In this document: positions 29,131 through 48,528 of the stretch, one piece after another | Numbering within the stretch: position 1 is the stretch's first letter | Layout: each line of letters opens with the position of its first letter | Assembly (NCBI GenBank): GCA_963676565.1 | Contig: OY781089.1 | Coordinates: forward strand, 1,760,001-1,824,000 | Source: Halarcobacter sp. | Lineage (GTDB): Bacteria; Campylobacterota; Campylobacteria; Campylobacterales; Arcobacteraceae | DNA length: 64,000 bases | Direction of reading: 5' to 3' | The notes under the pieces: generated by a model | What the model was told of the DNA's origin: nothing | The model's database searches: none | What the model saw: only the letters and a program-made list of their open reading frames with translations | Position numbers and translations under genes: made by a program

Positions 29131-29133
29131 TGA

Positions 29134-29158
29134 AAACTCAAGCTTTAAGCTTGAGTTT
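29134..29158 (+). terminator. Hairpin after acnB
   Basis: AAACTCAAGCTT-T-AAGCTTGAGTTT; only a short U-tract. Confidence 0.6.
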
Positions 29159-29160
29159 CC

Positions 29161-29172
29161 ATGAATATTCAT
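29161..29172. promoter_or_regulatory. Candidate TetR operator, copy 1
   Basis: Perfect palindrome ATGAATATTCAT about 22 nt upstream of a TATAAT box preceding tetR. Confidence 0.7.
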
Positions 29173-29235
29173 TTACTATTTATCTTTTTAATAATATAAT
29201 TTGAAAGTTTAGTAAGTTCCTCAAAAGGATTAATT

Positions 29236-29826
29236 GTGTCTGCAAAAGAAGAAAAAAAGAATAATATTATAGAAAACTCTTTGAAGCTTTTTTCAAAAAA
29301 TGGTTTTTATAATACAACAATCCCAGATATTGCAAAAGCTATGAAAATGAGTGTTGGTAATATGTATAACTACTTCAAGTCAAAAGAAGAGTTAGCTAAA
29401 TATGCCATAAAATACTCAACTAATGTATTAGCAATAGAGTTAAGAGAGATAAATCAAATGGATATCTCTTCAAAAGATAAAATCTTTGAGTTTACAAAGA
29501 AATATCTTGAAAATGTAAAAGAATCTCCAGAAGTGATTGAATATTTCTTAAGGGTTTATCTATCAAATAGAGAAGTTTTTGGTGATGGATGTGAAGGTTT
29601 TCTTTGTGTTAGTGATTTTGTTACTGAAGTTATGATTTTACTTGATGAAGGTGCTGCTAAGAAGGAGTTTAGACAACAAAATTTCTTCCCTGCATTTGGT
29701 ATGATCATGGGAGCATTAGGTGGATTTGCTTTTCTTACAGGTGAAAAGGTTTTAGATAAAGATGTAATGGATTACGCAGATGAAGTTGCAGAAAATATCT
29801 ATAGAGCTTTAAAGTATGAAGACTAA
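29236..29826 (+). CDS. TetR/AcrR family regulator
   Basis: LFSKNGFYNTTIPDIAKAMKMSVGNMYNYFKSKEEL helix-turn-helix; overlaps the hydrogenase small-subunit start. Confidence 0.95.
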   Translation: MSAKEEKKNNIIENSLKLFSKNGFYNTTIPDIAKAMKMSVGNMYNYFKSKEELAKYAIKYSTNVLAIELREINQMDISSKDKIFEFTKKYLENVKESPEVIEYFLRVYLSNREVFGDGCEGFLCVSDFVTEVMILLDEGAAKKEFRQQNFFPAFGMIMGALGGFAFLTGEKVLDKDVMDYADEVAENIYRALKYED

Positions 29827-30709
29827 TAACAAACCTAAAGTTTTATGGTTTCAAGCAGTAACTTGCAATGGAAATACCCATTCACTTTTAAGTGCTAACG
29901 AAAATAGGTTAGCACTTTTTTTTAAATCTTTTGATTTGATTTTTCATCCCTCTTTAAGTGTAGATGTATCATTAAAAGAAATTGTAAATTCAAATGAGCA
30001 GATTGACTTTTTATTAGTTGAGGGTGCAATAAGTAAAGATGAAAAATTTTTTACTATTTCAGATTCTACTACTTATGATTTATTCAATAAGCTTATCAAA
30101 AAAAGCAAGTATGTTGTTGCTGTTGGCTCATGTGCTTCTTATGGTGGTTTACATCAAAAATTTGAGCATAATGATTCAATAAAAGGTCTTCAAGATTCCC
30201 TTGAAACTGAAAATCTATATATTTTAAAACATCCAATTGTAAACATTACAGGATGTCCAGTTCATCCTGAATGGATATTTCAAACACTATTTGCATTAAA
30301 ACATAATGGGAAAATTGCCTTAGATGAATTAGGTCGTCCAAAAGAGTTATATTATGGTTTGGCCCATCATGGATGCACTAGGAATGAATATTTTGAATGG
30401 AAAGTTGAGGGTTCATTTGGGGCGAAAGAGGGATGTTTATTTTACGAGCAAGGGTGTCGAGGACCTATGACACACTCAAATTGTAATAAAGTATTGTGGA
30501 ATGATGTTAGCACTAAAACAAGAGCAGGAATGCCTTGTATTGGCTGTACAGAATTTGATTTCCCTCGGGATAATATGTTTGAGACTAAAAAAAATATTGG
30601 TATCCCAGATGAAGTACCACTTGGAATAAATAAAAGAGCTTATCTATCAATAACTGGTATTGCAAAAACTTTCAAGATAGAAAGACTTCATAAAAAGTTA
30701 ATTGACTAA
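29816..30709 (+). CDS. Cytoplasmic [NiFe]-hydrogenase small subunit (group 2d-like)
   Basis: No Tat peptide or TM tail; TCNGN, GSCASYGG, GCPVHP, HHGCTR, GCLF, GCRGP, CN, PCIGC. Confidence 0.9.
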   Translation: MKTNNKPKVLWFQAVTCNGNTHSLLSANENRLALFFKSFDLIFHPSLSVDVSLKEIVNSNEQIDFLLVEGAISKDEKFFTISDSTTYDLFNKLIKKSKYVVAVGSCASYGGLHQKFEHNDSIKGLQDSLETENLYILKHPIVNITGCPVHPEWIFQTLFALKHNGKIALDELGRPKELYYGLAHHGCTRNEYFEWKVEGSFGAKEGCLFYEQGCRGPMTHSNCNKVLWNDVSTKTRAGMPCIGCTEFDFPRDNMFETKKNIGIPDEVPLGINKRAYLSITGIAKTFKIERLHKKLID

Positions 30710-31348
30710 TTTAATCTTTTTATTTTTTGAACTTAAATAAATTTTAGTCCATTTGTAGTTACTCAAATTTTTTATATCAGATAAAATATCTATCTCTTTA
30801 TTATTTAAATCAATTGTTTCTAAAGTATGTAAAACTAAAATATCATCTCTTTTGGTTAAGGGTAAAATCTCTTTATTTATACTATCTAAAATAAATAGAT
30901 CAGAGTATGAATTTTCTTGATAACCTAAAACCAAATGGTATTCATTGTTATGAAGATTGTGTATCACTGAAAGTTTTGATTCCTCAACACCTAATTCAAT
31001 CAAAGTAAAATATTTGGCAATAACAAAATCTTCACAATCTCCTGCACCTTTAATTATAAACTCTTTTCTAGTAGCCCAATAATCTTTTTTGTTGTAAATG
31101 GTTTCATCACTTACATATGGATAAGTATTATAAAAATCATTAACCTCATTTAATTTTATAAAGTCATCATCTACGTCTTTTAATGATTTTTTTAATAGCA
31201 TCAAATCATTTATTCTATCAAAGATGATATTTTTTTGTGATGAGTGAGATATTTTAATAAAATCTTCATCTGTAATTTTTAAATCTTCTAATGTTGAAGA
31301 AAAGAGTAAAGTTGTAGTCAATAATGTAATTAGGAATAAGTTTTTCAT
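30698..31348 (-). CDS. LapG-like transglutaminase-like cysteine protease (BTLCP, C93)
   Basis: Signal peptide; VNDFYN..Y.SD, DYWAT, GDCEDFVIAKYFTL, HLVL, ILDS (Cys-His-Asp triad). Confidence 0.9.
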   Translation of the reverse strand: MKNLFLITLLTTTLLFSSTLEDLKITDEDFIKISHSSQKNIIFDRINDLMLLKKSLKDVDDDFIKLNEVNDFYNTYPYVSDETIYNKKDYWATRKEFIIKGAGDCEDFVIAKYFTLIELGVEESKLSVIHNLHNNEYHLVLGYQENSYSDLFILDSINKEILPLTKRDDILVLHTLETIDLNNKEIDILSDIKNLSNYKWTKIYLSSKNKKIKLVN

Positions 31349-31399
31349 TGGTGAATTATAATCAATTTATGATAAAATCACAACTTGTGAAAGGGAAAT

Positions 31400-32755
31400 A
31401 TGAAAACAGTTGACTTAGTAGAAAGAATTGAAGGGGAAGCAAAACTTGTTTGCTCTTGGGATGATGGAATTATTACAGATACAAAAATTAAGTTTTTGAA
31501 TTTTAGAGGTTTTGAATTTATCTTAGAAGGAAAACCTGTACTTGATGCACTAGTTTATACACCTAGAATTTGTGGAATTTGTGGTCAAGCACACCTAAAA
31601 GCAACTGTTGACGCCCTTGAAAATGCCTATGAAAACATAGGTGAAGAATTAACTGTAACAAATAAAGCAAAACTGTTAAGAGAAATTGGTCTAAATATTG
31701 AGATGATTGATTCACATATTAAATGGTTTTATCTATTTATTATGCCTGATATGACAAAACTTTCTAAAAAAGAATATTCAGGGTATGAGCCATTCTCAGG
31801 TAAGAAGTGGTTAAAAGGAACTTCAATAGCTAGTGAGATTATAAAATCCCTTGCAATTATTGGTGGTCAGTGGCCACATACTTCTTATATGATACCAGGA
31901 GGGGTTATGAGTGACCCTACACTTTTAGATTTAGTTACTATGGAAAATTATCTTGATAATGCTATTAGGTTTTTTGAAGAGGATTTTGCAGGAGTTTCAC
32001 TTGATGAATATTTGTCTTTTAATAGTGAATCAGATTTAGAAAAAATTGGCTTAGATTTAAAAGATTTTATTGATATTAGTTTTGAAAATGATTTTCATAA
32101 TATTGGAAAAGCATATAATAGATTTATTGCCCTAACAAATTCTCCTTCTTTTAAAGCAGGTAAAAAAAATAAAAGATTAAACACTAATTTAGATTTTAAA
32201 AATATTTGTGAAGATAGCAAATATACATTTAATGTTGATTCAAATGAGGAATCAAAGGAAGCTTATGGCTGGGCAAAAAATGTTAAATATGCAAATAATT
32301 TTTATGAAACGGGACCACTTGCAAGAGCTGTAATAAATGAAAGAAAATTTATCTCTAAGTTAAATAAAAAATTTGATGATTCTGTTTTAACAAGGGTACT
32401 AGCTAGAATGGATGAGTTTGCATACTTAATACAAGAAACAAAAAAATTAATAAAACAAATTGATATATCTGAACAAAGTTTTATTAAACCAAAATTCACA
32501 TTTAACATGGTAGATGAAGTAATAGGTGTATCCTCTGTTGAAGCAACAAGAGGCTCTTTATATCATGAAGTAAAAATTAAATATGGAAAAATTGATTCAT
32601 ATAATGTAATTACTCCAACTGTATGGAATTTAGGTCCTGGAGATAAAGATAATTATTCAATTGCACAAAAAGCAATTATAGGAAATGATTCAATTGAAAA
32701 AGCAAAAATTATATTAAGAAGTTTTGATGTGTGTTCTGTATGCACAACTCATTAA
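31400..32755 (+). CDS. Cytoplasmic [NiFe]-hydrogenase large subunit (group 2d-like)
   Basis: ERIEGE; L1 PRICGICGQAH; L2 RSFDVCSVCTTH followed directly by a stop (no cleavable extension). Confidence 0.92.
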   Translation: MKTVDLVERIEGEAKLVCSWDDGIITDTKIKFLNFRGFEFILEGKPVLDALVYTPRICGICGQAHLKATVDALENAYENIGEELTVTNKAKLLREIGLNIEMIDSHIKWFYLFIMPDMTKLSKKEYSGYEPFSGKKWLKGTSIASEIIKSLAIIGGQWPHTSYMIPGGVMSDPTLLDLVTMENYLDNAIRFFEEDFAGVSLDEYLSFNSESDLEKIGLDLKDFIDISFENDFHNIGKAYNRFIALTNSPSFKAGKKNKRLNTNLDFKNICEDSKYTFNVDSNEESKEAYGWAKNVKYANNFYETGPLARAVINERKFISKLNKKFDDSVLTRVLARMDEFAYLIQETKKLIKQIDISEQSFIKPKFTFNMVDEVIGVSSVEATRGSLYHEVKIKYGKIDSYNVITPTVWNLGPGDKDNYSIAQKAIIGNDSIEKAKIILRSFDVCSVCTTH

Positions 32756-32914
32756 TTAAAAATTGTGTTAATAGGTAACACTTTAAATATAAAATTAAAC
32801 TTAAAAAGTAACTCTTAAAATTATCATAGAAAATAGACAAAATTAGTCTTATTTTCTCCTAACTCCAACAAAAACGACACTTTTGTGTCACAAATCCCTT
32901 TTTTCGGCAACTTT

Positions 32915-32926
32915 ATGAATATTCAT
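32915..32926. promoter_or_regulatory. Candidate TetR operator, copy 2
   Basis: ATGAATATTCAT upstream of hydA1. Confidence 0.7.
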
Positions 32927-32989
32927 TCAATTTTTTTAGTTTAAAAAATTAAGTTTCAGCTAAGTCTAAACGCGTTAATTTACAATTAA

Positions 32990-33009
32990 TTAAATGAATA
33001 TTCATTTAA
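32990..33009. promoter_or_regulatory. Candidate TetR operator, copy 3 (20-bp perfect palindrome)
   Basis: TTAAATGAATATTCATTTAA ending 28 nt before the hydA1 ATG. Confidence 0.75.
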
Positions 33010-33037
33010 ATAAGACTTTTGGACTAAGGAGCGGTAT

Positions 33038-34282
33038 ATGGTTGATTCTCATGATATGGTAAAAAAAGTTTTTACCACCAATTCTTCAAGAATTGATACA
33101 AATAAAGGTGATGCATACTATAACAATTTGTTTGAACAGGCAAAGGCAAGGTTAAGCGCATTAAAAAAACAACCACCACTAAAAGATGTTGATATTATTG
33201 ACGTTGTAGAGAGTGAAGGTGTAGATAGAAGAGATTTCATGAAGTGGGCAAGTGCAACAACAGCAACACTTATGTTACCTCCTATGTTTACTCCACTTGT
33301 TGCAGAAGCTACAGAGCTTATGAATAGAGTTCCTGTTATTTGGATTGAGTTACAAGATTGTGCAGGAAATTCAGAAGCAATTTTAAGGTCTGCAACTCCA
33401 ACTGTTGATGATCTAATTTTCGATGTTTTATCTTTAGAATATCATCATACACTTCAAGCAGCATCTGGTCATCAAGCAGAAGCTCAACTTGAAGATGCAG
33501 TTCATCATTTTAAAGGAAAATATTTACTTTTTGTTGAAGGTGCTATTCCTACAGCAATGAATGGTGGTTATGGAACAATTGGACCTAGTGGTGAAACTTA
33601 TATTGATAACTTAAAAAGATTATCAAATGACGCAGCAGCAGTTGTAGCAGTTGGTACATGTGCAACATTTGGTGGAATCCCTGCAGCTGCTCCAAATCCA
33701 ACAGGTGCAGTTGGTGTTATGGATATTGTAAAGGGTAAACCTATTATAAATATTCCAGCATGTCCAGCTAATCCAGCAAATATGGTTGGGGTTGTATTAC
33801 ACTATGTTTTAACAGGACAAATTCCTGAGTTAGACTCACTACTTAGACCAAAATTTGCATTTGGTTATAGAATCCATGATAACTGTGAAAGAAGAGCACA
33901 CTTTGATGCTGGTGAATTTGTTGAAGAGTGGGGAGATGTTGGAGCACAAAACAACTTCTGTTTATATAAAATGGGTTGTAAAGGTCCTATGACTTTTAAC
34001 AACTGTTCAATTATTAGATATAACGAAGGTGCAAACTGGCCTATTGGAGTTGGTCGAGGATGTATTGGATGTTCAGAACCTGATTTTTGGGATAAATATG
34101 CTTATGAAAGACCAATGGCTGGAGCTAATATTAAAGCACCAACTGGTGGAGTAGAAAAAACTGTAGATGAGTTTGGTCTTGGATTATTAACAGCAACGGC
34201 AATTGGTATTGGTGTACATGCAGTTACAAGTGCAGCAATTGGAAAAAAATCAGAACATAAACATAGTGAAGATGGAGAATAA
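33038..34282 (+). CDS. hydA: Membrane-bound uptake [NiFe]-hydrogenase 1 small subunit (group 1b-like)
   Basis: Tat motif DRRDFMK; QDCAGN; GTCATFGG; CP; HDNCER; CLYKMGCKGP; GCIGC; C-terminal TM helix with His. Confidence 0.93.
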   Translation: MVDSHDMVKKVFTTNSSRIDTNKGDAYYNNLFEQAKARLSALKKQPPLKDVDIIDVVESEGVDRRDFMKWASATTATLMLPPMFTPLVAEATELMNRVPVIWIELQDCAGNSEAILRSATPTVDDLIFDVLSLEYHHTLQAASGHQAEAQLEDAVHHFKGKYLLFVEGAIPTAMNGGYGTIGPSGETYIDNLKRLSNDAAAVVAVGTCATFGGIPAAAPNPTGAVGVMDIVKGKPIINIPACPANPANMVGVVLHYVLTGQIPELDSLLRPKFAFGYRIHDNCERRAHFDAGEFVEEWGDVGAQNNFCLYKMGCKGPMTFNNCSIIRYNEGANWPIGVGRGCIGCSEPDFWDKYAYERPMAGANIKAPTGGVEKTVDEFGLGLLTATAIGIGVHAVTSAAIGKKSEHKHSEDGE

Positions 34283-34284
34283 GA

Positions 34285-36021
34285 ATGAGTAAACATGTAG
34301 TAATTGACCCAATAACAAGAATTGAGGGACACTTAAGAATAGAAGCAGTGATTGATGAGAATAATGTAATCACTGAGGCTTTCAGTTCTTCAACTATGTT
34401 TAGAGGTATTGAAACAATCTTACAAGGTAGAGATCCAAGAGACTGTGGTCTTTTAGCTATGAGAATCTGTGGTGTTTGTACAGGTACTCACTATCAAAGA
34501 TCAATTGAGGCTGTTGAACATGCATTTGATGTAACAATTCCAAAAAATGCTAGACTTGTTAGAAATCTAATGCAAGGTGCATTATATTTACATGACCACG
34601 TTGTTCACTTCTATCACTTACATGCTTTAGATTTTGTTGATATTACAAAAGCTTTAGAAGCAGATCCAAAGAAAACAGTAGAGGAAGCTCAAAAATGGGC
34701 AAAACTTTCAGGTCAAAGATCTTGGAAAGCAAGTGAAGATACTTTTATTGAAGTTCAAGAAAGAGTTACTAAATATGTAAAACAAGGAAGACTTGGTATT
34801 TTTGGAAACGCTTATTGGGGATCAAAAGCATATAAGCTAACTCCTGAGCAAAATCTAATTGGTTTATATCACTATTTAGAAGCACTTGAGCTACAAAGAA
34901 GAATAGCGAAGGCTCAAGCAATTTTTGGTGGTAAAAACCCACATCCACAATCGATTGTTGTTGGTGGTGTAACTTGTGTTCAAGATTTAAAAAATCCTGC
35001 TAGAATTGCTGAATTTAAAGATATTATTCAATTAGCACAAAAATTTATTAAAGAAGCTTATCTTCCAGATATTTATATGGCTGGGACTATGTATGCAGAT
35101 GAAGCATTAGCTGGAATTGGTGGAGGTTTAGGAAACTTCATGTCTTATGGTGACTTTAGATTAGATGATTTACCATTCTATGAATCTTCTAAATTATTCC
35201 CAAGTGGAATAGTAATGAACAAAGATTTATCTAAAGTTTATGAATTAGATCAAACTAAAATCACAGAAGATGTAACACATGCTTGGTATGAAGGTAATAC
35301 AAACCTACACCCTTATGATGGTGTTACTCATCCAAAATATACTGGTTTTGCTAAAAAAGAAAATAATATTGCCTACTTAGATACAGAAGGTAAATATTCT
35401 TGGATTAAATCACCATTATATGATGATGAAAGAATGGAAGTAGGTCCATTGGCAAGAATGGTTGTAGGAGTTGCAAAAGGTGATGAGAGAATTACCAAGT
35501 ATGTTACAACATTCTTAAAAAATGGAAACTTACCAACAAAAGTTTTATTCTCAACAATTGGTAGAACAGCGGCAAGAGCTATTGAATCTGAAATGATGGC
35601 TGATGAGATTATAAAATGGTGTGATGAACTTGCAGTTAATGTTGCTTCAGGAGACTTATCTACATGGACTGAGTTTGATTTTGATAAAGTTTCTAAAGAT
35701 ACTCAAGGTTTTGGTATGGCAGAAGCTCCAAGAGGTGGTTTAGGTCACTGGGTAAAAATTAAAGATGGAAAAGTAGAAAACTATCAAGCTGTTGTTCCAT
35801 CTACTTGGAATGCAGCACCAAAAGATTATAAAGGTAGACTTGGAGCATATGAGGCATCTTTAATAGGTACTCCTGTAGTTAATCCAGATGAGCCATTAGA
35901 GATTATTAGAACAGTTCATAGTTTTGACCCTTGTATTGCATGTGCAGTTCACATTGTAGATACAAATGGTAAAGAATTAGCAGTTTATAAAGTAGATCCA
36001 ATAGGAGGAAGCTGTGCCTAA
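34285..36021 (+). CDS. hydB: Uptake hydrogenase 1 large subunit
   Basis: DPITRIEGH; RICGVC; FDPCIACAVH plus C-terminal extension. Confidence 0.96.
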   Translation: MSKHVVIDPITRIEGHLRIEAVIDENNVITEAFSSSTMFRGIETILQGRDPRDCGLLAMRICGVCTGTHYQRSIEAVEHAFDVTIPKNARLVRNLMQGALYLHDHVVHFYHLHALDFVDITKALEADPKKTVEEAQKWAKLSGQRSWKASEDTFIEVQERVTKYVKQGRLGIFGNAYWGSKAYKLTPEQNLIGLYHYLEALELQRRIAKAQAIFGGKNPHPQSIVVGGVTCVQDLKNPARIAEFKDIIQLAQKFIKEAYLPDIYMAGTMYADEALAGIGGGLGNFMSYGDFRLDDLPFYESSKLFPSGIVMNKDLSKVYELDQTKITEDVTHAWYEGNTNLHPYDGVTHPKYTGFAKKENNIAYLDTEGKYSWIKSPLYDDERMEVGPLARMVVGVAKGDERITKYVTTFLKNGNLPTKVLFSTIGRTAARAIESEMMADEIIKWCDELAVNVASGDLSTWTEFDFDKVSKDTQGFGMAEAPRGGLGHWVKIKDGKVENYQAVVPSTWNAAPKDYKGRLGAYEASLIGTPVVNPDEPLEIIRTVHSFDPCIACAVHIVDTNGKELAVYKVDPIGGSCA

Positions 36022-36727
36022 AATGAAACGGGTTATGAGAATGACTCCAATGATGCGAACCATTCACTGGGTGAATGCGATTTGCATGGTTGTTGCAGTC
36101 ATAACCGGTCTTTACATAGGATATCCATACTATCAAACATTAATTGCTGATCCAGCAGTTGACAAATATGTGATGGCGTGGAATAGATGGGGGCATTTTA
36201 TTGCAGCAATTATTTTTGATGTTTCTGCAATTTTAATTGGTTATTTATATCTTTTTTCAAGATTTGAAAAACCATATAAAAAGATTTTGCCAACTAAGAA
36301 AAATTTTATTGAGTTTTGTGAAGTATTTTTTAACCTACTTACTTTTAATAGAAGAAAAAAGTTTGATTCAACATATAGTGATTCTTATAACATTATGTTT
36401 TTTACACTTTTTCATATTCTATTGGTATTTATGTTATTAACGGGACTTCAATTATATGTTCATGGTTTAGCATCTGGACATAGTTCTATTGGAGCTTGGT
36501 GGCCATGGCTGTTACATTTTATGACAGATTGGACATTAGATGTATTTGGTGGGAATATGGGTGTTAGAATTGCACACCATACAGCTATGTATTTGATTTT
36601 AATGTGGGTAATGTCTCATATATATTATCAAATATGGAGAACTATCTTCTGGAGAGAAGGTGATATTAATATCGTATTTGGTGGTTATAAATTTGCAAAT
36701 AAATCATCAAAAGGTGAAGATAAGTAG
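36014..36727 (+). CDS. hydC: Hydrogenase 1 cytochrome b subunit
   Basis: RTIHW; four TM helices with heme-ligand His (WGHF, AHH, SHIY). Confidence 0.9.
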   Translation: MPKMKRVMRMTPMMRTIHWVNAICMVVAVITGLYIGYPYYQTLIADPAVDKYVMAWNRWGHFIAAIIFDVSAILIGYLYLFSRFEKPYKKILPTKKNFIEFCEVFFNLLTFNRRKKFDSTYSDSYNIMFFTLFHILLVFMLLTGLQLYVHGLASGHSSIGAWWPWLLHFMTDWTLDVFGGNMGVRIAHHTAMYLILMWVMSHIYYQIWRTIFWREGDINIVFGGYKFANKSSKGEDK

Positions 36728-36749
36728 TAAGTTTATACAAAATTGACAC

Positions 36750-36785
36750 AATAGGCTGTAGTTTTAGCTACAGCCTATTTTTTTT
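36750..36785 (+). terminator. Intrinsic terminator after hydC1
   Basis: AATAGGCTGTAG-N6-CTACAGCCTATT followed by a T-run. Confidence 0.85.
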
Positions 36786-36827
36786 CTTATAATATAAGAA
36801 TATGAGAATTTAAAGCTAGGAAAATTG

Positions 36828-37403
36828 ATGAGAAATATTGTAATTGGTGTTGGAAATGTACTATTTAAAGATGAAGGTGTAGGTATTTTTGCATCTAAAT
36901 ATTTAGAAAAAAACTATGACTTTGAAGGTGATTTAGAAATTATTGAGGGTGGGACTTTAGGTTTTAAACTTATGACATATTTCCAAGAATATGATAATGT
37001 AATCATTTTAGATACAGTTTCAATTGAGGATAAGCCAGGTGAGATTTTTAGATTACCATCTGACGTATTACTTGGACTTGGACAATATAGAAAAACAGCC
37101 CATGAAGTTGAGATTATTGAGATGCTTGAGATAGTATCTGTTTTAGATAGCCATGCAGAGGTAACTATTTTAGGAATAGTTCCAGAAGATATAGTAAGTG
37201 TAGAAATTGGACTTACTAAAAAAATTGAAGATAGATTTGAAGAGTTTATTTTACAAACTATAAAAGAACTTGATAGTATAGGTGTAAAAGCAGTTAAAAA
37301 AGATAATAAAAGTGTAAAAGATATAGGACTTCAATTAATTGGAAGTTATAATGGGGAGCATTTAAATAGAATCCCAAATGAGGAAGATACAACATGGAGT
37401 TAA
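36828..37403 (+). CDS. hydD: Hydrogenase maturation endopeptidase 1
   Basis: GVGNVLFKDEGVG, EGGTLG, ILD, TAHE. Confidence 0.92.
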   Translation: MRNIVIGVGNVLFKDEGVGIFASKYLEKNYDFEGDLEIIEGGTLGFKLMTYFQEYDNVIILDTVSIEDKPGEIFRLPSDVLLGLGQYRKTAHEVEIIEMLEIVSVLDSHAEVTILGIVPEDIVSVEIGLTKKIEDRFEEFILQTIKELDSIGVKAVKKDNKSVKDIGLQLIGSYNGEHLNRIPNEEDTTWS

Positions 37404-38929
37404 TTTATAAGATAAATTTCAATAGTACAAATTTTTATTTTAAAGATATAATTGATTGTTTAATAAAAGAATCTCAAGTTTTGGCACAAACAAAAATGTA
37501 TAAAGGCTTTATTCTTATTATTTGTAATGATACACAAGAAAATATAGAAGTATTTTTCAAAATCTTAGAGCAGAAACTTCCTTTATCAATCTTTTTAGAA
37601 AGTGCAGAAGTTATTGAGTCTTTTAATTATAATGATTATGAAGAATTGGAAGATAAAGATGTTAAAATTAATCTTTCTTTATTAACTAATGATGAGATTA
37701 AAACTATTATAACTGAAAATAATATAGATTTTACAAACGATATAGAAAAGATAAAAGATGGTGGAGTATCTAGGTTTGAAACCCACAATGGGTTAAAAGA
37801 TATCTTTTTACCTTCTGTTGAAAATAGAGAATTTTTTGAAAAAAAAGGTAAAGAGGTTAAACTTTTAATTACAGATATAAATTCACTTACAAACTTAGTT
37901 GAAATCTCACAAAAAGATTTACAACTTCTTTGCTCAATTGAAAGACCTTTAATTAAGTTAAAGTTTAAACTTTTACAAAATTCAAAGGGTGAATATTCAA
38001 GTACTAGATTTATACATGCAAAAATCCCAGATGATAAAGAAACACTACTATTTGCTGATGCATTAAAAAAACATGGAATCAATGCTGTTTTATATGTAAA
38101 TGATGATGTTTATCAAGATGGACTAAAGTTAAGTTATAATGAAAAACAAAATATTATAACTCATGGGGAAAAAGGGATTTTTCCAAAGTATGATTATCAA
38201 TTAAATAGACAGGTTAATTCTTCTGCAGATTTTTTTGAAGAGTATGGTTCTGTATTTAAAGCTTCAATTGCACAATTAAATAAAAGAGTAGTACCAACTA
38301 TTGGTATTTATTTTTCATATGAAAGTGATGAATCAGCAATTAAAATAAATGTTCCTACAGTTGGAGAGAAAGATGTGATTCTTATTCCAAATGTGGTAAA
38401 TAATGTAGAAAATTGTTTAGAAGATATTGCATCAATAGATGAACATTGTGAGAGGTTGATTTCTAATTATAAAGATAAATTTCCACAATATTTTGAAAAA
38501 GAGTTTATAAATAAAGATGTGGATGGTTTTGAATCAATTCTAAATTTATTAGCTTATATGTTAGGCATGAGAAATAGAAAACAGTTTGAAGATACAGCTT
38601 TAATGTTTGGTGGTAAAAGTGGTCTACAAGTTGATATGAAAATTATGCAAATTGATGGGAAAAACTACTTAGACTATAGAAGAGTTATCCAAAGTATAAT
38701 GAGTTATAAAATGGCAGACGTAGATGAAACTATGTTAGCATATTCATTTTATGAATCTTTGGTAGACTTTATAGAAGAAAATATATCAAAAATATCTGAA
38801 GAGATTAAGGCAAAAGATTTAATCCTTTGTGGAAACATGTTCTCTAACTCAATACTACTATCTAAATTAGATAAAAAACTAAGTAATATCAATATTCTTA
38901 TCCCTAAAGAATATCCAATAGACTTATAA
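37394..38929 (+). CDS. HydE-like hydrogenase accessory protein 1 (degenerate HypF-like)
   Basis: Follows hydD; LPLSIFL, SIERP, SYKMADVD...LAYSFYESL, ILCGNMFSN; shares these blocks with 43435-45048. Confidence 0.7.
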   Translation: MELIYKINFNSTNFYFKDIIDCLIKESQVLAQTKMYKGFILIICNDTQENIEVFFKILEQKLPLSIFLESAEVIESFNYNDYEELEDKDVKINLSLLTNDEIKTIITENNIDFTNDIEKIKDGGVSRFETHNGLKDIFLPSVENREFFEKKGKEVKLLITDINSLTNLVEISQKDLQLLCSIERPLIKLKFKLLQNSKGEYSSTRFIHAKIPDDKETLLFADALKKHGINAVLYVNDDVYQDGLKLSYNEKQNIITHGEKGIFPKYDYQLNRQVNSSADFFEEYGSVFKASIAQLNKRVVPTIGIYFSYESDESAIKINVPTVGEKDVILIPNVVNNVENCLEDIASIDEHCERLISNYKDKFPQYFEKEFINKDVDGFESILNLLAYMLGMRNRKQFEDTALMFGGKSGLQVDMKIMQIDGKNYLDYRRVIQSIMSYKMADVDETMLAYSFYESLVDFIEENISKISEEIKAKDLILCGNMFSNSILLSKLDKKLSNINILIPKEYPIDL

Positions 38930-38958
38930 TAAAAATATAATCAAAAGTAAACTTAACA

Positions 38959-39001
38959 CAAAAGAGAATTATTAGTTTATCTAATAATTCTCTTTTTTTT
39001 T
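38959..39001 (+). terminator. Intrinsic terminator after hydE1
   Basis: AAAAGAGAATTATTAG-TTTAT-CTAATAATTCTCTTTT plus T-run. Confidence 0.8.
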
Positions 39002-39200
39002 AAATCCATATAATAAATTATAATTATGTAAATTTTATGTAAAAAAAATGTATTGAATGTTTGTCTACATGGGCATTTGTGACATTAATATGACATTTAT
39101 AAAAGAGAAAAGAATTATAATTTCAAATAAATTTAATAAAAAGATTATAATTTTAGTTAAAGTTAAGTTTAAGTCATGTAAGATTTGTTAAGTTAAACAA

Positions 39201-39216
39201 AAATGAATGTTCATTT
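39201..39216. promoter_or_regulatory. Candidate TetR operator, copy 4
   Basis: AAATGAATGTTCATTT (one mismatch) upstream of hydA2; weaker ATGAATGTTTAT at 39273-39284. Confidence 0.65.
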
Positions 39217-39303
39217 GTTAATAGAATTTGTAAGTTTAATTTAAACTTACTTAAATGATGCTTTTATTATGAATGAATGTTTATTAATCGAAAGGAAAAA
39301 AGA

Positions 39304-40470
39304 GTGAAAGATTTAGGTTTATTTCAACAGCTCTCTCAAAGATTAGAGAAACTTGAAAAATTACCAAAAATGGATGAGTCAAAATCTATCCCTAAGGTAT
39401 TAGAAGAAAAAGGTATCTCAAGAAGAGATTTTATGAAGTGGGCAACTGCTGTTACTGCAATGTTAGCATTACCAGGTAACTTTACTCCACTTGTTGCAAA
39501 AGCTGCTGAGTTAAGTGATAGACTGCCTGTAATTTGGTTACATATGGCAGAGTGTACGGGATGTTCTGAATCATTATTAAGAACAGATGCACCAACTATT
39601 GATTCATTAATTTTTGATTTTATTTCATTACAATATCATGAAACATTAATGGCAAGTGCAGGTTGGCAAGCAGAAGATAATTTAGAACATGCAATCGAAA
39701 AATATAAGGGTAACTATATTTTAATGGTTGAAGGTGGAATTCCACAAGGTCAAAATGATTTTTATTTAACAATTGGTGGAAAAGGTCACACAGGTGAACA
39801 TTCTGCAAAACATGCATCTGAACATGCAAAAGCTATTTTTGCTATTGGTACATGTTCTTCATTTGGTGGTGTTCAAGCTGCAATTCCAAATCCAACAGGA
39901 GCAGTTGCTCTTTCAAAAATCACTGATAAACCAGTGATTAATGTTCCAGGATGTCCTCCAAGTGAGAAAAATATTGTTGGTACATTATTACACTTTATTT
40001 TATTTGGAACACTTCCAGCTTTAGATGCATATAATAGACCAAAATGGGCTTATGGACTTAGAATTCACGACTTATGTGAAAGAAGAGGTCACTTTGATGC
40101 AGGTGAATTTGTAGAAGAATTTGGTGATGAAGGTGCTAAAAAAGGTTACTGTTTATATAAAGTAGGTTGTAAAGGACCTTATACTTTTAATAACTGTGGT
40201 AAAAATAGATTTAACCAACATACTTCTTGGCCAATTCAAGCAGGTCACGGATGTATTGGATGTTCTGAACCAGATTTCTGGGATACTATGGGACCATTTG
40301 AAGAGCCAGTTGCAGATAGATTATATAACACAGTATTTGGTGGTCTTGGAGCAGATGCAACAGCCGATAAGGTTGGAACTGGATTATTAGCTGTAACTGG
40401 TATTGGTATAGCAGCACACGCAGCACTATCAACATTTAGAAAACCAAGAACAGAAGAAGAGGAACATTAA
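39304..40470 (+). CDS. hydA: Membrane-bound uptake [NiFe]-hydrogenase 2 small subunit (canonical group 1b)
   Basis: SRRDFMK Tat motif; HMAECTGCSES; GCPP; HDLCER; C-terminal TM. GTG start at 39304 after AAGGA preferred. Confidence 0.95.
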   Translation: MKDLGLFQQLSQRLEKLEKLPKMDESKSIPKVLEEKGISRRDFMKWATAVTAMLALPGNFTPLVAKAAELSDRLPVIWLHMAECTGCSESLLRTDAPTIDSLIFDFISLQYHETLMASAGWQAEDNLEHAIEKYKGNYILMVEGGIPQGQNDFYLTIGGKGHTGEHSAKHASEHAKAIFAIGTCSSFGGVQAAIPNPTGAVALSKITDKPVINVPGCPPSEKNIVGTLLHFILFGTLPALDAYNRPKWAYGLRIHDLCERRGHFDAGEFVEEFGDEGAKKGYCLYKVGCKGPYTFNNCGKNRFNQHTSWPIQAGHGCIGCSEPDFWDTMGPFEEPVADRLYNTVFGGLGADATADKVGTGLLAVTGIGIAAHAALSTFRKPRTEEEEH

Positions 40471-40471
40471 G

Positions 40472-42202
40472 ATGGCAAATAAAAGAGTAATAGTAGACCC
40501 AATTACAAGAATTGAAGGACACTTAAGAATTGAGGTTGAAGTTGATGAAAATAATGTAATTCAAAATGCTTTTTCTTCAGCAACTTTATGGAGAGGACTT
40601 GAAACTATTGTAAAAAATAGAGATCCAAGGGATGCAGGTTTTCTTATGGGAAGAATTTGTGGTGTTTGTACATACTCTCACTACAGAGCTGGAATTGAAG
40701 CTGTTGAAGATGCATTAGGGATTCAAATCCCATTAAATGCACAATTAACAAGATCATTAATGAATCAAGCATTATTTATCCATGACCACCCAGTACATTT
40801 TTATCATTTACATGGACTTGACTGGTGTGATGTTGTTTCAGCACTTGATGCAGATCCTGCACTTGCTGCTAAAGAAGCTTTTAAATATGCTAAATATCCT
40901 GTTGCAGCAGGAGAAGGTGATTTATTAAAAGTAAAAGATAAATTAAAAGCTTTTGTTGATAAAGGTGATTTAGGACCATTTGCTAATGCATATTGGGGAC
41001 ATAGTACTTTTAGATTAACACCTGAGCAAAATTTAATTGTAGCTTCTCACTATCTTAAAGCTTTAGAAATTCAAAGAACTGCTGCACAATTAATGGCAAT
41101 CTTTGGTGGTAAACAACCACACCCTCAAAGTTTAACTGTTGGTGGTGTAACTTGTATTATGGACTTATTAGATCCTAGTAGAATGGGTGAGTTCTTAGTT
41201 AAGTTTAAAGAGGTTGCAAACTTTGTAGAAAATGCTTATTATGCAGATATTAAAATGGCTGGTGCAGCATATATAACTGAACCAACTGTAACTGCTGAAG
41301 CTGGTGTAATGAACTTTATGGCACATAATACTATGCAATTAAATCAAACAGAACATTTATTTGATGCAGGTATTATATTAAATGGTGACCTTACAAAAGT
41401 TTATGAGATTGATGAGAGTTTAATTACAGAAGAAGCTACTCACGCATGGTATGAAGATGATGAACCTTTACATCCATATGATGGTAGAACAAATCCAAAA
41501 TATACTGGTTTACAAGATAGAATGACAGTTGGACCTGAAGGTGAAGATGTTGCTTCTAAATCAGTAGATGATAAAGGTAAATATTCTTGGATTAAATCAC
41601 CTCGATATGATGGTAAAGCAATGGAAGTTGGACCTTTAGCATCAATGTTAGTTTCATATGCAAAAGGGAATCCAAAAATTAAAAAAATTGTTGATGATTT
41701 CTTAGGCGAAACAGGATTACCTGCGGCTGCATTATTCACAACTTTAGGTAGAACAGCAGCTAGATGTTTACAAACTAAAGCAATTATTGACCATGGATTA
41801 GAAACATTTAATACATTAATTGAAAATTTAAAGGTAGACCAAGAAACTTGTGCTCCATATTCTATTGATAAAAATAAAGAGTATAAAGGAAGATTTATTG
41901 GCGATGTTCCAAGAGGTATGTTATCTCACTGGGTTAGAATCAAAAATGGTGTAATTGAAAACTACCAAGCTGTTGTTCCTTCAACATGGAATGCTGGTCC
42001 TGAAGATTCAAAAGGGATTAAAGGTCCTTATGAAGCTAATTTAATTGGTATGAAAGTTCAAGATGTTTCTCAACCATTAGAAATTATTAGAGTTATTCAT
42101 AGTATGGATCCTTGTATTGCTTGTGCTGTTCATGTAATGGATGTAAAAGGGAACGATTTAGGTGTTTATAAAGTAGACCCTATGTATGGAACTAGCTGCT
42201 AG
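40472..42202 (+). CDS. hydB: Uptake hydrogenase 2 large subunit
   Basis: DPITRIEGH; RICGVCTYSH; MDPCIACAVH plus extension. Confidence 0.96.
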   Translation: MANKRVIVDPITRIEGHLRIEVEVDENNVIQNAFSSATLWRGLETIVKNRDPRDAGFLMGRICGVCTYSHYRAGIEAVEDALGIQIPLNAQLTRSLMNQALFIHDHPVHFYHLHGLDWCDVVSALDADPALAAKEAFKYAKYPVAAGEGDLLKVKDKLKAFVDKGDLGPFANAYWGHSTFRLTPEQNLIVASHYLKALEIQRTAAQLMAIFGGKQPHPQSLTVGGVTCIMDLLDPSRMGEFLVKFKEVANFVENAYYADIKMAGAAYITEPTVTAEAGVMNFMAHNTMQLNQTEHLFDAGIILNGDLTKVYEIDESLITEEATHAWYEDDEPLHPYDGRTNPKYTGLQDRMTVGPEGEDVASKSVDDKGKYSWIKSPRYDGKAMEVGPLASMLVSYAKGNPKIKKIVDDFLGETGLPAAALFTTLGRTAARCLQTKAIIDHGLETFNTLIENLKVDQETCAPYSIDKNKEYKGRFIGDVPRGMLSHWVRIKNGVIENYQAVVPSTWNAGPEDSKGIKGPYEANLIGMKVQDVSQPLEIIRVIHSMDPCIACAVHVMDVKGNDLGVYKVDPMYGTSC

Positions 42203-42211
42203 GAGCAAATT

Positions 42212-42886
42212 ATGATAAAAAAACATTATGAATTTTCGTATTGGCTAAGAATCACTCACTGGGTGAGAGCCCTTGCAATAGTAATTTTAACAGTATCGGG
42301 TTTTTATATAGCATATCCATTTATATCACCTGCTCACTCTGGTGGTGAGCCTGTGTTATTTTTAAATGCTTTATTTAGATCTTGGCATGTTATTTTTGGA
42401 TTTATGTTAATTGCTGTTACAATTGGAAAATTTTATTTATTTATTTTTGATAAACAAAGTAAACCTGAAAGAGATTCTTTTTGGGATTTTATTAATCCTA
42501 AAGTTTGGATTCAACAAATTGGGTATTATTTGTTAATCACAAAGCACCCTCATGGAAAAGGTGTTTATAACCCACTTCAGTTTATGGCTTATGTTGGGGT
42601 GTATGTAGCAATTGTTATGATCTCATTAACAGGATTAATCCTTTATGTTCATGTATATCATGAAGGTATGGGTGGTTTTTTGTTTGATTTTATGCGATCA
42701 TTAGAAGTAATGATGGGCGGTTTAGCGTTTGTTAGAGAGTTACACCACATTTTTATGTGGATTTTCATAATCTTCTTACCTATTCACGTATATCTTGCAG
42801 TATTTAACTCTGTACATGGAAAACAAGGAGCAATGGACTCTATTATTTCTGGTTACAGATGGGTAAAAGAGGATACAAAGCACTAA
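42212..42886 (+). CDS. hydC: Hydrogenase 2 cytochrome b subunit
   Basis: RITHWVRA, SWH, YNPLQ, RELHH, IHVY. Confidence 0.93.
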   Translation: MIKKHYEFSYWLRITHWVRALAIVILTVSGFYIAYPFISPAHSGGEPVLFLNALFRSWHVIFGFMLIAVTIGKFYLFIFDKQSKPERDSFWDFINPKVWIQQIGYYLLITKHPHGKGVYNPLQFMAYVGVYVAIVMISLTGLILYVHVYHEGMGGFLFDFMRSLEVMMGGLAFVRELHHIFMWIFIIFLPIHVYLAVFNSVHGKQGAMDSIISGYRWVKEDTKH

Positions 42887-42887
42887 T

Positions 42888-43451
42888 ATGAATATATTAA
42901 TTTTAGGAATAGGAAATATCCTATTCCAAGATGAAGGAATTGGAGCTCATTTTATTCATTATCTTGATGAAAAATATGAGTACAGTTCTGATAAACATAC
43001 TATTAGTATTGTTGATGGTGGAACATTAGCCCACAGGCTAATTCCACTCATCATCAAATATGATAAAGTTTTTGTTGTTGATTGTATTGACGCATTAGAT
43101 TCAAAACCTGGTGATATTTATTTTTTTGATTATTTAAAAGCTCCTGCGGAAGTTGATTGGCAAGGTAGTGCCCATGAACTTGAGATGCTTCAAACTTTAA
43201 ATATGATTAAAATGAATGGAGACTTACCAAGTACAAATGTTCTTGGAATTATCCCTAAAAGAATTGCCGATGATACTACTTTTGAATTAAGTGAAGAGAT
43301 TATAAAAGCTATTCCTACAATGGAAAATACAATAATCAATGCAATAAAAGATTTAGGTGTAAATGTTTCACTTAGAAATGAAAATTTATCAATCATTGAA
43401 ATAGCTAACAGCTCATATAAAAGAGAGATTATAAATGGTCCTGCAATATAA
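42888..43451 (+). CDS. hydD: Hydrogenase maturation endopeptidase 2
   Basis: GIGNILFQDEGIG, DGGTLA, VDC, SAHE. Confidence 0.93.
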   Translation: MNILILGIGNILFQDEGIGAHFIHYLDEKYEYSSDKHTISIVDGGTLAHRLIPLIIKYDKVFVVDCIDALDSKPGDIYFFDYLKAPAEVDWQGSAHELEMLQTLNMIKMNGDLPSTNVLGIIPKRIADDTTFELSEEIIKAIPTMENTIINAIKDLGVNVSLRNENLSIIEIANSSYKREIINGPAI

Positions 43452-45048
43452 ATTTAAGTATACATCTAACAATAATAGTTTAATAACTATTTTAGATAAT
43501 ATTTTAGCAAAAAAAGAAACCACTTATAATCTTTATAAAGAGGATGATTTTCTTTTTTTATATGTAGATGATGAAGAAGAAAAACTATTAAAAATTTCAG
43601 ATGAAATATCAACTGAACTTCCTATGTCAATATTTTTGGAAGATTATACATTAGAAGTTGTGCCACAGTTTCCAATTGTCAACTATCAATATACTCCTGA
43701 TAGTCTCAGAAAGTCTTACTGTTCAAATTGTTTAACCAAAGTAGAAAATAATGAGTCTAAATTTTTCTACGACCCCTTTTTAAATTGTGAAATTTGTGGT
43801 ACAACTTGTGATGTAGAAAAAATAGAAATAAGTTCAAAAGATGAAGAGTTTACTTACTCAAACTATAAAGAGTTTTTTGAAAAACTTGCATTAGCAATCT
43901 CTTCAAATAAAAAAGTAAAAATAAATAATTATGTATTTACAAAGTTTAAAAAACTTGAAAAAGAAAATGAAAAAATACTTTGTACAAATCTTGATAAATT
44001 GCCAAATATTGTAGTTGGTTCAAAGCAAAAGATTGCGCTTTTATTAAGTTTAGAAAAACCAACAATCTGTTTTAATGTAAACGCTATATATAAAACAAAC
44101 AATAATTGCTTAGTTAATAAAGTTGATATTAAAGCACCTTGGAATATTTTTTATCATCTATTAGCAAAAGAACTTTTAGCTTTAAATATAGATTTTGTAA
44201 AGTTTGAAGAGGATGAAGATTTTGATTTAGAAATCAATTTTAATGATATCGAAAACAAGACAAAAATATCAGTAACTCAAAGTAAGATACATTTTTTAGA
44301 AAATAGTTTTTATGATAAAGCTTTAGATGAGTTATATAATAAATTTGATGAAAAAGCAAAATCACAATTTATGGTTTTATTAAGTGAAAATAAGTTATTC
44401 GAAAAATCTATAATCAACATCTATGCCTCATCTAAATATGATATGGCGATATCTTTATATTCTCCAAAAATTGATGGTGTTGTTGATTTAGTATCTTTTA
44501 AAATGCCAAAAAGTGTTAATGAGATTTTTGAAGGTATCAAAAAAGAAGAAAATGGTGAAAGATTATTAGAAAATTTCAAAAATAAATTTGAAAAAGAGTA
44601 TGAAAATGCTTTAAATTCAGATATCTCTTTTATTAAAGATTGTTCTTTAAATTCATTATTAAAAATACCTGGAACTATTTTAGGAATAGATAATATTTAT
44701 AAAGATGCTTCAAGTGCCTTACTTCAAAAAGGCCCAAGATTAGATTTTAAAATTATAAATAAAGAGAAACTATTTAATAAAGAGTTTGATTTTATTAAAC
44801 TTGTAAAAAGTGGAATTAGTTTTAAACTTGCAGGGGTAGATAAAAAAACTTTAGCCTTAGGATATGTAGAGAGTTTTATCTATTTCTTATCTGATCTAAT
44901 TGATGATGTTAATGAAAACTTTCCTATTGATGGAATATCTTTAAGTGGTGATTTAATAGCAGATGAATTTTTCAATAAAATCTTAAAATTAGCATTAACA
45001 ACAAACTTTAAATTATATTACAATAAGGATTTTCCAATACAATTATAA
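43435..45048 (+). CDS. HydE-like hydrogenase accessory protein 2
   Basis: Follows hydD2; LPMSIFL, two CxxC (CSNC, CEIC), SLEKP, KGPRLDF, SFKLAGVD...LALGYVES. Confidence 0.72.
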   Translation: MVLQYKFKYTSNNNSLITILDNILAKKETTYNLYKEDDFLFLYVDDEEEKLLKISDEISTELPMSIFLEDYTLEVVPQFPIVNYQYTPDSLRKSYCSNCLTKVENNESKFFYDPFLNCEICGTTCDVEKIEISSKDEEFTYSNYKEFFEKLALAISSNKKVKINNYVFTKFKKLEKENEKILCTNLDKLPNIVVGSKQKIALLLSLEKPTICFNVNAIYKTNNNCLVNKVDIKAPWNIFYHLLAKELLALNIDFVKFEEDEDFDLEINFNDIENKTKISVTQSKIHFLENSFYDKALDELYNKFDEKAKSQFMVLLSENKLFEKSIINIYASSKYDMAISLYSPKIDGVVDLVSFKMPKSVNEIFEGIKKEENGERLLENFKNKFEKEYENALNSDISFIKDCSLNSLLKIPGTILGIDNIYKDASSALLQKGPRLDFKIINKEKLFNKEFDFIKLVKSGISFKLAGVDKKTLALGYVESFIYFLSDLIDDVNENFPIDGISLSGDLIADEFFNKILKLALTTNFKLYYNKDFPIQL

Positions 45049-48359: not shown

Positions 48360-48528
48360 TTTAAAACCATCTTTAATATTTTTATATTTAAAAGAATAAC
48401 TTAATATAACTAATAGTTTACTTGTTCTAAAAATACATAAGATGTGCTTACTATTAGTTTGAATAAAGTTTCATTAGACTACACTTTCTAAAATGAACAA
48501 TAATTCACAAGAATTTAAAGGATAATAT

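Follow-up and report, generated by a model that had tools for sequence, protein, structure and literature searches.

A candidate TetR regulon over hydrogen uptake, hydrogenase maturation and electron sinks, encoded beside a group 2d-type [NiFe]-hydrogenase in Halarcobacter

Genes and features of the tetR-huaSL locus

The window analysed here is a stretch of 64,000 nucleotides from the genome of Halarcobacter sp. (assembly GCA_963676565.1, contig OY781089.1, positions 1,760,001 to 1,824,000 of the forward strand). It carries a gene for a TetR-family regulator, tetR, followed by huaS and huaL for the subunits of a cytoplasmic [NiFe]-hydrogenase, two operons for uptake hydrogenases exported by twin-arginine translocation (Tat), and genes for hydrogenase maturation (Table 1). 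A preliminary description of this stretch had tied one short palindrome to tetR and to both uptake-hydrogenase operons. The palindrome does stand before all three, and it is absent from hydA promoters of genomes in which TetR is not found. The same description had tetR overlapping the gene for a Tat-less small subunit; the overlap is 11 bp, and HuaS has no TAT match, while HydA1 and HydA2 have one. A minus-strand gene for a LapG-like protease sits between huaS and huaL, which corrects the earlier picture of the gene order.

Table 1. Coordinates of genes and candidate operators in the window
Feature	Position	Strand	Remarks
Operator before tetR	29161..29175	.	ATGAATATTCAT as N0, or TGAAT-ATTC-ATTTA as N4 with 1 mismatch
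tetR, TetR-family regulator (provisional label HuaR)	29236..29826	+	GTG start, 196 aa
huaS, small subunit of cytoplasmic group 2d-type [NiFe]-hydrogenase	29816..30709	+	PF01058 and PF14720, no TAT_signal
LapG-like transglutaminase-like cysteine protease gene	30698..31348	-	PF06035, 1.3e-12; NF045674, 9.7e-32, below curated cut-off
huaL, large subunit	31400..32755	+	ends at His of CSVCTTH, no C-terminal extension to cleave
Distal hydA1 operator	32915..32929	.	N0 12-mer and perfect N4 site TGAATATTCATTCA (32916-32929)
Proximal hydA1 operator	32990..33009	.	20-bp perfect palindrome TTAAATGAATATTCATTTAA, centre about 39 bp 5' of ATG
hydA1-hydB1-hydC1-hydD1 and HypF-C-like gene, Tat-exported uptake hydrogenase operon 1	33038..38929	+	Pfam, NCBIfam
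Distal hydA2 operator	39203..39214	.	ATGAATGTTCAT
Proximal hydA2 operator	39270..39287	.	TGAATGAATGTTTA, or TGAAT-GTTT-ATTAA as N4 with 1 mismatch
hydA2-hydB2-hydC2-hydD2 and HypF-like gene, uptake hydrogenase operon 2	39277..45048	+	Pfam; likely start GTG 39304
hypF, full length	45069-47300
Two 1-mismatch N4 sites before hypB	48460..48507	.	TGAATAAAGTTTCA at 48460, TGAACAATAATTCA at 48494
hypB, nickel-insertion GTPase, first of the downstream hyp genes	48529..49332	+	PF02492

The regulator belongs to the TetR family by its N-terminal helix-turn-helix (HTH) and its all-helical fold. Residues 11-55 match PF00440 with an E-value of 7.6e-14 (51.7 bits against a cut-off of 24), and the AlphaFold2 model (pLDDT 88.6) shows nine helices in the two-domain arrangement typical of TetR proteins. 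A Foldseek comparison of this model with the PDB gave 333 matches at E<=0.001, and those listed are overwhelmingly TetR-family proteins with TM scores up to 0.81. FadR-type structures (PDB entries 3whb, 3whc and 5gp9) are among the nearest folds, with TM scores of about 0.75-0.78 at 17-18% identity. By sequence, a PDB search gave HTH-level matches only, the best being IcaR (2.7e-08), and the match to NCBIfam NF053878 is weak (3.1e-10) and far below the cut-off.

Two stretches of the protein are near-invariant in 125 distinct orthologs of two phyla, Campylobacterota and Aquificota. One is the recognition-helix region, MSVGNxYNYFxSKEELAK. The other, YFLRV(Y/F)LxNRE(V/I)FxxGCEGxxCV, carries Cys119 and Cys124, and this Cys-x4-Cys pair is invariant in 76 of 76 orthologs and at least 98% conserved in the 125. 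The loop that holds the two cysteines is the sole low-confidence stretch of the AlphaFold2 model (pLDDT about 51). An invariant loop that the model cannot place might be a cofactor site, a thiol switch or a partner-docking loop.

Palindromic sites in the window

Site counts in the 64-kb window were compared with the expected number of matches and with 100 shuffles. The 12-mer ATGAATATTCAT lies at 29161, 32915 and 32994, three copies against 0.03 expected, and none of the 100 shuffles reaches three. Allowing Y/R at the centre (ATGAAYRTTCAT) adds the site at 39203, giving four observed against 0.08 expected, and a further form, ATGAATGTTTAT, is located at 39273. All five coordinates had been given exactly in the preliminary description, and the count is far above chance. 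The second hydA1 site does extend to a perfect 20-bp palindrome, TTAAATGAATATTCATTTAA, at 32990-33009, and the sites are indeed paired before each uptake operon, with spacings of 79 bp for hydA1 and 70 bp for hydA2.

The best promoter match, TTTACT-17-TATAAT at 29172-29200, has a -35-like TTTACT that the site before tetR abuts or overlaps, and a block ATGAAnnTTCATTyACTATTAA is kept about 65 bp 5' of tetR in most loci of the same genus. Inspection by eye showed no sigma-54-type promoter upstream of hydA1. At hydA2, the site at 39273 overlaps the ATG at 39277, the first ATG of the longest hydA2 open reading frame (ORF); the true start is probably the GTG at 39304, which is preceded by AGGA.

Form and specificity of the operator across the genome

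The genome has 3,340,668 bp and 28.4% GC, and intergenic status was taken from our own crude set of 3136 ORFs, which covers 93% of it and leaves about 7% as non-ORF DNA. The exact 12-mer occurs five times genome-wide against Markov expectations of 1.5-2.2, with three of the five copies in this cluster. ATGAATRTTYAT has 13 copies, eight inside ORFs and five outside, and all of the latter lie in this cluster. In the genome-wide scan that had been proposed as a check, the non-ORF copies of ATGAATRTTYAT are thus confined to the cluster. As a motif the 12-mer is too narrow.

The general unit is a pair of inverted half-sites, TGAAT and ATTCA. Four base pairs usually separate them (N4); at hydA1 of this genus they abut (N0). 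TGAAT-N4-ATTCA is found 12 times in the genome, 11 of them outside ORFs. The same half-sites at spacings 1-3 and 5-16 fall outside ORFs zero to two times each, and at spacing 0 in 6 of 20 cases; besides N4 and N0, no arrangement of the same five letters shows non-ORF enrichment. The preference holds for imperfect copies too, with 39 of 281 one-mismatch N4 sites outside ORFs against 3-5% for other spacings.

Perfect N4 sites neighbour hydA1, selA, the nrfH-nrfA genes of a cytochrome c552 nitrite reductase, and genes for two Tat proteins (a molybdopterin oxidoreductase and a FAD flavoprotein), a GAF-domain sigma-54 activator, a chemoreceptor and a SLAC1/TehA-type transporter. The distances from operator to start codon for hydA1, hydA2, hypB and nrfH are about 15-80 bp. 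The predicted regulon is thus wider than the two uptake hydrogenases and takes in hypB, nrfHA and other respiratory genes. The site at the sigma-54-dependent GAF activator lies outside the window (G000:C1:740597), 117 bp 5' of the gene at 740714-742261, and hints at a regulatory cascade below TetR.

Conservation of the operator within the family

Around TetR orthologs of the same family we fetched 36 loci, divided into group A, 76-98% identical to the window protein, and group B, 52-57% identical. The order tetR, huaS, huaL is kept in all 36, followed by hydA1 in 34 and by a hydA2-type gene in two. In 31 of the 34 loci with hydA1, the 12-mer stands 22-44 bp upstream of that gene with one mismatch or none, and the three that miss it have N4 sites with 0, 0 and 1 mismatch instead. 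All 25 group-A loci with hydA1 have the N0 core at no more than one mismatch. Group-B hydA1 sites are perfect N4 in 8 of 10 loci and have one mismatch in the other two, and at hydA2 a perfect N4 is present in 14 of 19 group-A loci. Because group B and the three misses keep TGAAT-N4-ATTCA, we read the 12-mer as a special, locally dominant form of a general operator. The group-A hydA1 site, TAAATGAATATTCATTTA, can itself be taken as a pair of one-mismatch N4 sites that overlap with an offset of 4 bp. Footprinting of orthologous promoters, also suggested beforehand, upheld the conservation of the site but not the 12-mer as its definition.

The site recurs at the further predicted targets. A perfect N4 lies 31-33 bp 5' of hypB in four related genomes, and such sites precede hypB also in two other families and in an Aquificales record. 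For nrfH, 23 of 30 TetR-bearing genomes of the family have a perfect N4 upstream, mostly centred 51-82 bp from the start, and five have one with a single mismatch. In five TetR-bearing genomes of one genus, 30 of 50 perfect N4 sites fall outside long open frames. These 30 precede hydA-type genes, hypB (four genomes), nrfH-like genes (three), a sulfite-oxidase-type molybdenum (Mo) enzyme (three), chemoreceptor genes and others.

Distribution beyond the family

TetR orthologs at 51-60% identity are present in eight further families of Campylobacterota, and 22 of the 23 loci fetched have the gene directly before huaS-huaL. Perfect N4 sites number only two to five in each of five complete genomes from other families; in four of these genomes they stand upstream of hynA, of hypB or of a tetR paralog. 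A paralog in G221 carries a perfect TGAATATTCATTCA site 67 bp 5' of its own start.

A scan of named public genomes gave 52 loci with TetR orthologs at 50-86% identity and 40 hynA genes with at least 150 bp upstream. The Campylobacterota records with an ortholog belong to Arcobacter, Halarcobacter, Aliarcobacter, Poseidonibacter, Sulfurospirillum, Sulfurimonas, Sulfurovum, Sulfuricurvum and Nautiliaceae, and the Aquificota records to Persephonella, Aquificales, Hydrogenothermaceae, Aquificaceae and Ca. Pampinifervens. Within 150 bp upstream of hynA, a perfect N4 is present in 27 of the 40 cases, and 39 have either an N4 with no more than one mismatch or a perfect N0 core. Of 44 perfect N4 sites in the 520,085 bp of these records, 33 sit in those 6,400 bp. 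Several loci show two sites 44-45 bp apart. The motif is carried by contigs of 46-57% GC too, where AT richness cannot have produced it.

In several Aquificota records tetR again lies directly before huaSL. Two Aquificaceae records (L245 and L255) have tetR between hypB and hydA, with no adjacent huaSL, and in L245 a perfect site lies 44 bp 5' of hydA. The three Aquificota genomes with an unlinked tetR, including both Aquificaceae, encode a huaL homolog elsewhere.

The motif follows the regulator

The two genes are gained and lost together. Among 151 genomes of the family, 92 have both tetR and huaL; three have tetR only (one of them a pseudogene with two stops), and one has huaL only, at a contig edge. 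In 301 genomes of the phylum, all 49 with huaL also have TetR, three have tetR only and none has huaL only. Of these three without a huaL match, one has the gene beside tetR at a looser threshold, one has a broken tetR and one is unexplained.

Where TetR was not found, the sites are missing as well. No N4 with one mismatch or fewer lies within 150 bp of hydA in any of 13 such family loci; a 14th locus was dropped because its contig begins inside huaL, so that the genome has the module. Two families in which no genome matched TetR (0/90 and 0/124) have no site before hydA in any of five genomes, and the nrfH N4 site is absent from all four TetR-less genomes with nrfH. In five complete TetR-less genomes of the genus analysed above, 3 of 18 perfect N4 sites lie outside long open frames, compared with 30 of 50 in the five that have TetR.

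Four TetR-less relatives carry imperfect versions of the palindrome. ATGAATATTTAC lies about 33 bp before hydA in L072, where TetR-bearing relatives have the operator, and three others have TTATTAATATTTAC at the same place. Both look like decaying relics of sites after loss of tetR-huaSL.

The HuaSL hydrogenase

HuaL shows invariant Ni-Fe cysteine motifs in the alignment, R56-x-C58-G-I-C61 and D443-x-C445-S-V-C448. The large subunit had been said to end at CTTH with no maturation extension, and its terminus is indeed CSVCTTH with H451 as the last residue. Assignment of HuaSL to group 2d has indirect support from the Aquificota orthologs and from A. butzleri, where the genes directly 5' of hynA are named huaSL and placed in group 2d (PMC12286921). 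No histidine kinase or NtrC-type gene lies between 26.5 and 49.3 kb of the window, in line with what had been reported for the cluster. Such partner genes being absent, HuaSL is not a member of a group 2b regulatory system, however it works. A complex prediction for HuaL, HuaS and TetR scored 0.17, with a mark of 0.32, which counts neither for nor against contact.

In the N-terminal C-x-x-C of HuaS (alignment columns 17-22), which we take to ligate the proximal Fe-S cluster, the second cysteine is replaced by Asn in most rows (TCNGN) and by Asp in L158 and L159; it is kept only in L161, L163, L166 and L168. The proximal cluster of HuaS may thus be unusual.

Unrelated genes are inserted repeatedly at the huaS-huaL junction. 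The LapG-like insert occurs in L037 alone among the 36 loci fetched, and we rejected it as a part of the module, inserts at this place varying by lineage. The gap is 8.7 kb in L034 and about 1.2 kb in four group-B loci, including a 398-aa ORF in L052, and the Aquificales record L215 has a pair of 66-aa and 138-aa ORFs there. The cases observed are 30698-31348 (-) in the window, L034, L052, L055, L057, L059, L213 and L215.

Regulatory model and alternatives

The pairing of an invariant half-site with an invariant recognition helix is the pattern expected of a conserved regulator-operator pair, and it is very likely that the TetR protein binds this operator. The TetR dimer would contact the inverted TGAAT/ATTCA half-sites, and where sites are paired, binding could be cooperative. 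The sites lie about 15-80 bp from start codons and at the -35 region of tetR; on these grounds we infer the sign of regulation, and repression by promoter occlusion is the default reading. The regulon would couple H2 uptake, by two Tat-exported hydrogenases and their maturation, to electron sinks, nitrite ammonification in particular; the Tat Mo-oxidoreductase and the Tat flavoprotein are candidates for further sinks in this genome.

The signal is proposed to enter by the invariant Cys-x4-Cys loop, acting as a thiol switch, a metal site or an Fe-S site. Because tetR is translationally coupled to huaSL and the genes are gained and lost together, HuaSL is the most likely signal source, and it would report H2 or the cytoplasmic redox state. 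This sensor role draws on co-occurrence, operon fusion, the invariant Cys pair and published expression. That HuaSL supplies an H2 or redox signal to TetR through the Cys loop is a tentative proposal, to which we give somewhat less than even odds. The broader idea that group 2d hydrogenases as a class are H2 sensors, passing electrons or making a redox-dependent contact to the Cys-x4-Cys loop of a one-component TetR, is more speculative still. If it holds, H2 signalling would proceed with neither kinase nor phosphorelay and would switch on uptake, maturation and electron sinks such as nitrite ammonification; Campylobacterota and Aquificota would have this pathway in common, probably through gene transfer. 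Our best overall explanation is a TetR regulon over H2 uptake, maturation and electron sinks, with HuaSL as the probable signal source, and we assign it a probability of roughly 0.6. The one-component TetR circuit put forward at the outset is retained in that comparative data point to a TetR regulon over both hydrogenases; its motif and its regulon were too narrow.

Published expression data bear on this explanation. With H2, A. butzleri hDNRA1 raises both sets of hynAB (3.7/2.3-fold and 6.2/4.2-fold) and nrfA (4.0-fold), as given in the accessible part of the study (PMC12286921). Conserved operators stand here before the gene sets that rise, in support of an H2-responsive regulon. In Sulfurospirillum, hupL transcripts are very low or undetected and HupSL is absent from the proteomes, according to the portions available of two papers (PMC5357620, PMC6242987). 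Such low abundance fits a regulatory protein better than a bulk enzyme.

Several observations weigh against the proposed regulon and its signal source. In the same A. butzleri data huaSL falls with H2 (PMC12286921), which one repressor releasing all its targets does not predict. An operator before tetR was not found in the genus-level group of A. butzleri, and hua may therefore be controlled differently there. With 1191 of 2260 genes changed in that RNA-seq, the agreement is weak evidence. Presence of the site before tetR depends on the lineage: 16 of 27 group-A loci have it with one mismatch or none, and only 3 of 10 group-B loci have it in perfect form. A promoter scan of 29000-33100 as a whole does not exceed shuffles (24 matches against a mean of 26.1), and from it we used the tetR match alone, as a positional hint. 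The intergenic calls depend on the crude ORF set. Some genomes of other families have two to four tetR paralogs at 47-58% identity (L167, in tandem, and G221, G281 and G306). The genomes are related to each other, so that the counts overstate the number of independent events, and the TetR-less genus (g11) may represent a single loss that took other genes too. All support for binding by TetR is comparative.

A chance origin is suggested by the AT-rich motif and a genome of 28% GC, in which palindromes could arise in intergenic DNA as functionless products. This is refuted by the shuffles, none of which reaches the observed count, by enrichment outside ORFs at the N4 and N0 spacings only, and by conservation in two phyla including contigs of 50-57% GC; we consider it practically negligible. 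Sites of the CRP/FNR family have a 5-4-5 layout, and TGAAT-N4-ATTCA resembles FNR-type boxes. The motif might then belong to such a regulator, with TetR only the local repressor of huaSL suggested in print; sites at many respiratory genes, as with a global anaerobic regulator, and two CRP/FNR genes near the nrf region would agree with this. With one of these two proteins as query, however, all five TetR-less and all five TetR-bearing genomes give two matches each, and the presence of this regulator therefore does not follow the motif. The motif instead travels with tetR into Aquificota and GC-rich genomes and stands before tetR and a tetR paralog, the TetR recognition helix is as invariant as the half-site, and no other DNA-binding gene was found to travel with the cluster. 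Ownership of the motif by another regulator is accordingly quite improbable.

A more serious alternative accepts TetR binding and the regulon but denies HuaSL the sensor role: TetR itself, through its Cys pair or pocket, would sense oxygen or an oxidant, nickel, or a small ligand (acyl-CoA, for instance), and HuaSL would be an enzyme that is transcribed along with it and might, for example, supply low-potential reductant. TetR proteins with thiol-based sensing, NemR and RcrR, are known; the regulon consists of oxygen-sensitive or anaerobic respiratory enzymes; and tetR occurs with no adjacent huaSL in L245 and L255. Nickel as the signal would fit hypB and the Ni-enzymes, but nrfHA, the Mo enzymes and the chemoreceptor genes are unrelated to nickel. 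An acyl-CoA ligand would fit the FadR proteins among the nearest folds, but identity to these is at most about 19%. A metabolic role has been offered for this hydrogenase in the available part of one paper (PMC5357620). Against all these variants, the near-perfect co-occurrence of tetR and huaL in two phyla and the overlap of the genes go beyond what would be expected for a passenger enzyme, and we regard sensing by TetR on its own as rather unlikely.

Relation to known systems

The well-known H2-sensing cascade of Ralstonia, Rhodobacter and Bradyrhizobium consists of a regulatory hydrogenase (HoxBC/HupUV), a histidine kinase (HoxJ/HupT) and an NtrC-type regulator (HoxA/HupR). The present system is similar in having a cytoplasmic, Tat-less [NiFe]-hydrogenase whose large subunit lacks a C-terminal extension, encoded beside a regulator of uptake-hydrogenase genes and, as far as the accessible data go, expressed at a low level. 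It differs in that the cluster has no kinase or NtrC-type gene, with a one-component TetR as the putative DNA-binding partner, in that the hydrogenase is of type 2d rather than 2b, and in that the predicted regulon extends to nrfHA and other reductases. NemR and RcrR share with the regulator a TetR fold with conserved regulatory-domain cysteines that could gate DNA binding. No sequence relationship to them beyond the family was detected, however; the cysteines here form a C-x4-C in a loop, and the gene is fused to a hydrogenase operon instead of detoxification genes. The fold is also like that of the FadR-type TetR proteins of Bacillus, but we have no evidence for an acyl-CoA pocket in the window protein. 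A possible resemblance to a Bacillus FadR box with TGAATGA half-sites was dropped as evidence, no paper on it having been found.

Within the same phylum, uptake-hydrogenase regulation is also described for Helicobacter pylori hydABC, where control is metal-dependent and exerted by Fur and NikR, going by the accessible text (PMC6682613); the regulators and the boxes differ from ours. A further difference is that the two families noted above (f2 and f3) gave no TetR match in 90 and 124 genomes and no operator before hydA in five. The closest precedent is a "TetR-like transcriptional repressor" directly upstream of hupSL in S. multivorans, suggested to repress possibly that enzyme (Kruse 2017, PMC5357620, citing Goris 2014). 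The arrangement is the same, and the Sulfurospirillum loci L222, L228, L231, L236 and L241 have tetR-huaS-huaL, the operator and hynA. The published role is local repression of hupSL, whereas an operator, a link to hyn, hyp or nrf, the Cys pair and a phylum-wide distribution do not appear in the part of that paper available. The word "TetR" is absent from the accessible portion of the A. butzleri supplement (PMC12286921). A literature search that did not cover subscription journals turned up no account of the operator or the regulon, nor of the Cys pair or the two-phylum distribution. What appears to be new here is the operator and the regulon; a TetR-like gene upstream of hupSL was already in print.

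The physiological role of group 2d hydrogenases has been a matter of guesses in the texts available, namely a supply of reductant for carbon fixation or H2 sensing, and other papers speculate that H2 sensing, or work at low H2, is the role of "group II" hydrogenases (PMC7952632, seen in part). The sensing role would now gain a concrete output, with a defined regulator, operator and regulon. Free-living Campylobacterota are said to lack ArcAB and FNR in the accessible part of one paper, and the TetR regulon could fill this gap in their respiratory regulation. A link between H2 oxidation and nitrite ammonification could explain the H2-dependent DNRA (dissimilatory nitrate reduction to ammonium) transcriptome of A. 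butzleri. The operator is short and sharply defined, with conservation in two phyla, and could serve to predict genes that respond to H2 in genomes from vents, sediments and hosts. If true, the system would be a simple, previously undescribed H2 or redox switch.

Other features of the cluster

The last gene of each uptake operon is large, at 37394-38929 (511 aa) and 43435-45048 (537 aa), and these terminal genes resemble only the C-terminal Kae1-like part of HypF (PF22521, 1.5e-08) or nothing. Between hypF and hypB, a 219-aa ORF at 47700-48359 (-) encodes an N-terminal Cys-rich motif and gives a faint IS1595-transposase match (E 1.9e-04, below the cut-off); the hypB operators lie between this ORF and hypB. 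Four RNA runs with the same species label give 0 reads on 28900-40500 and are no test of expression. Of the sampled words of 28900-33200, 93-94% are present in DNA runs labelled as another organism (coded organism B, study P2), and a near-identical bacterium thus occurs in the sequencing of organism B.

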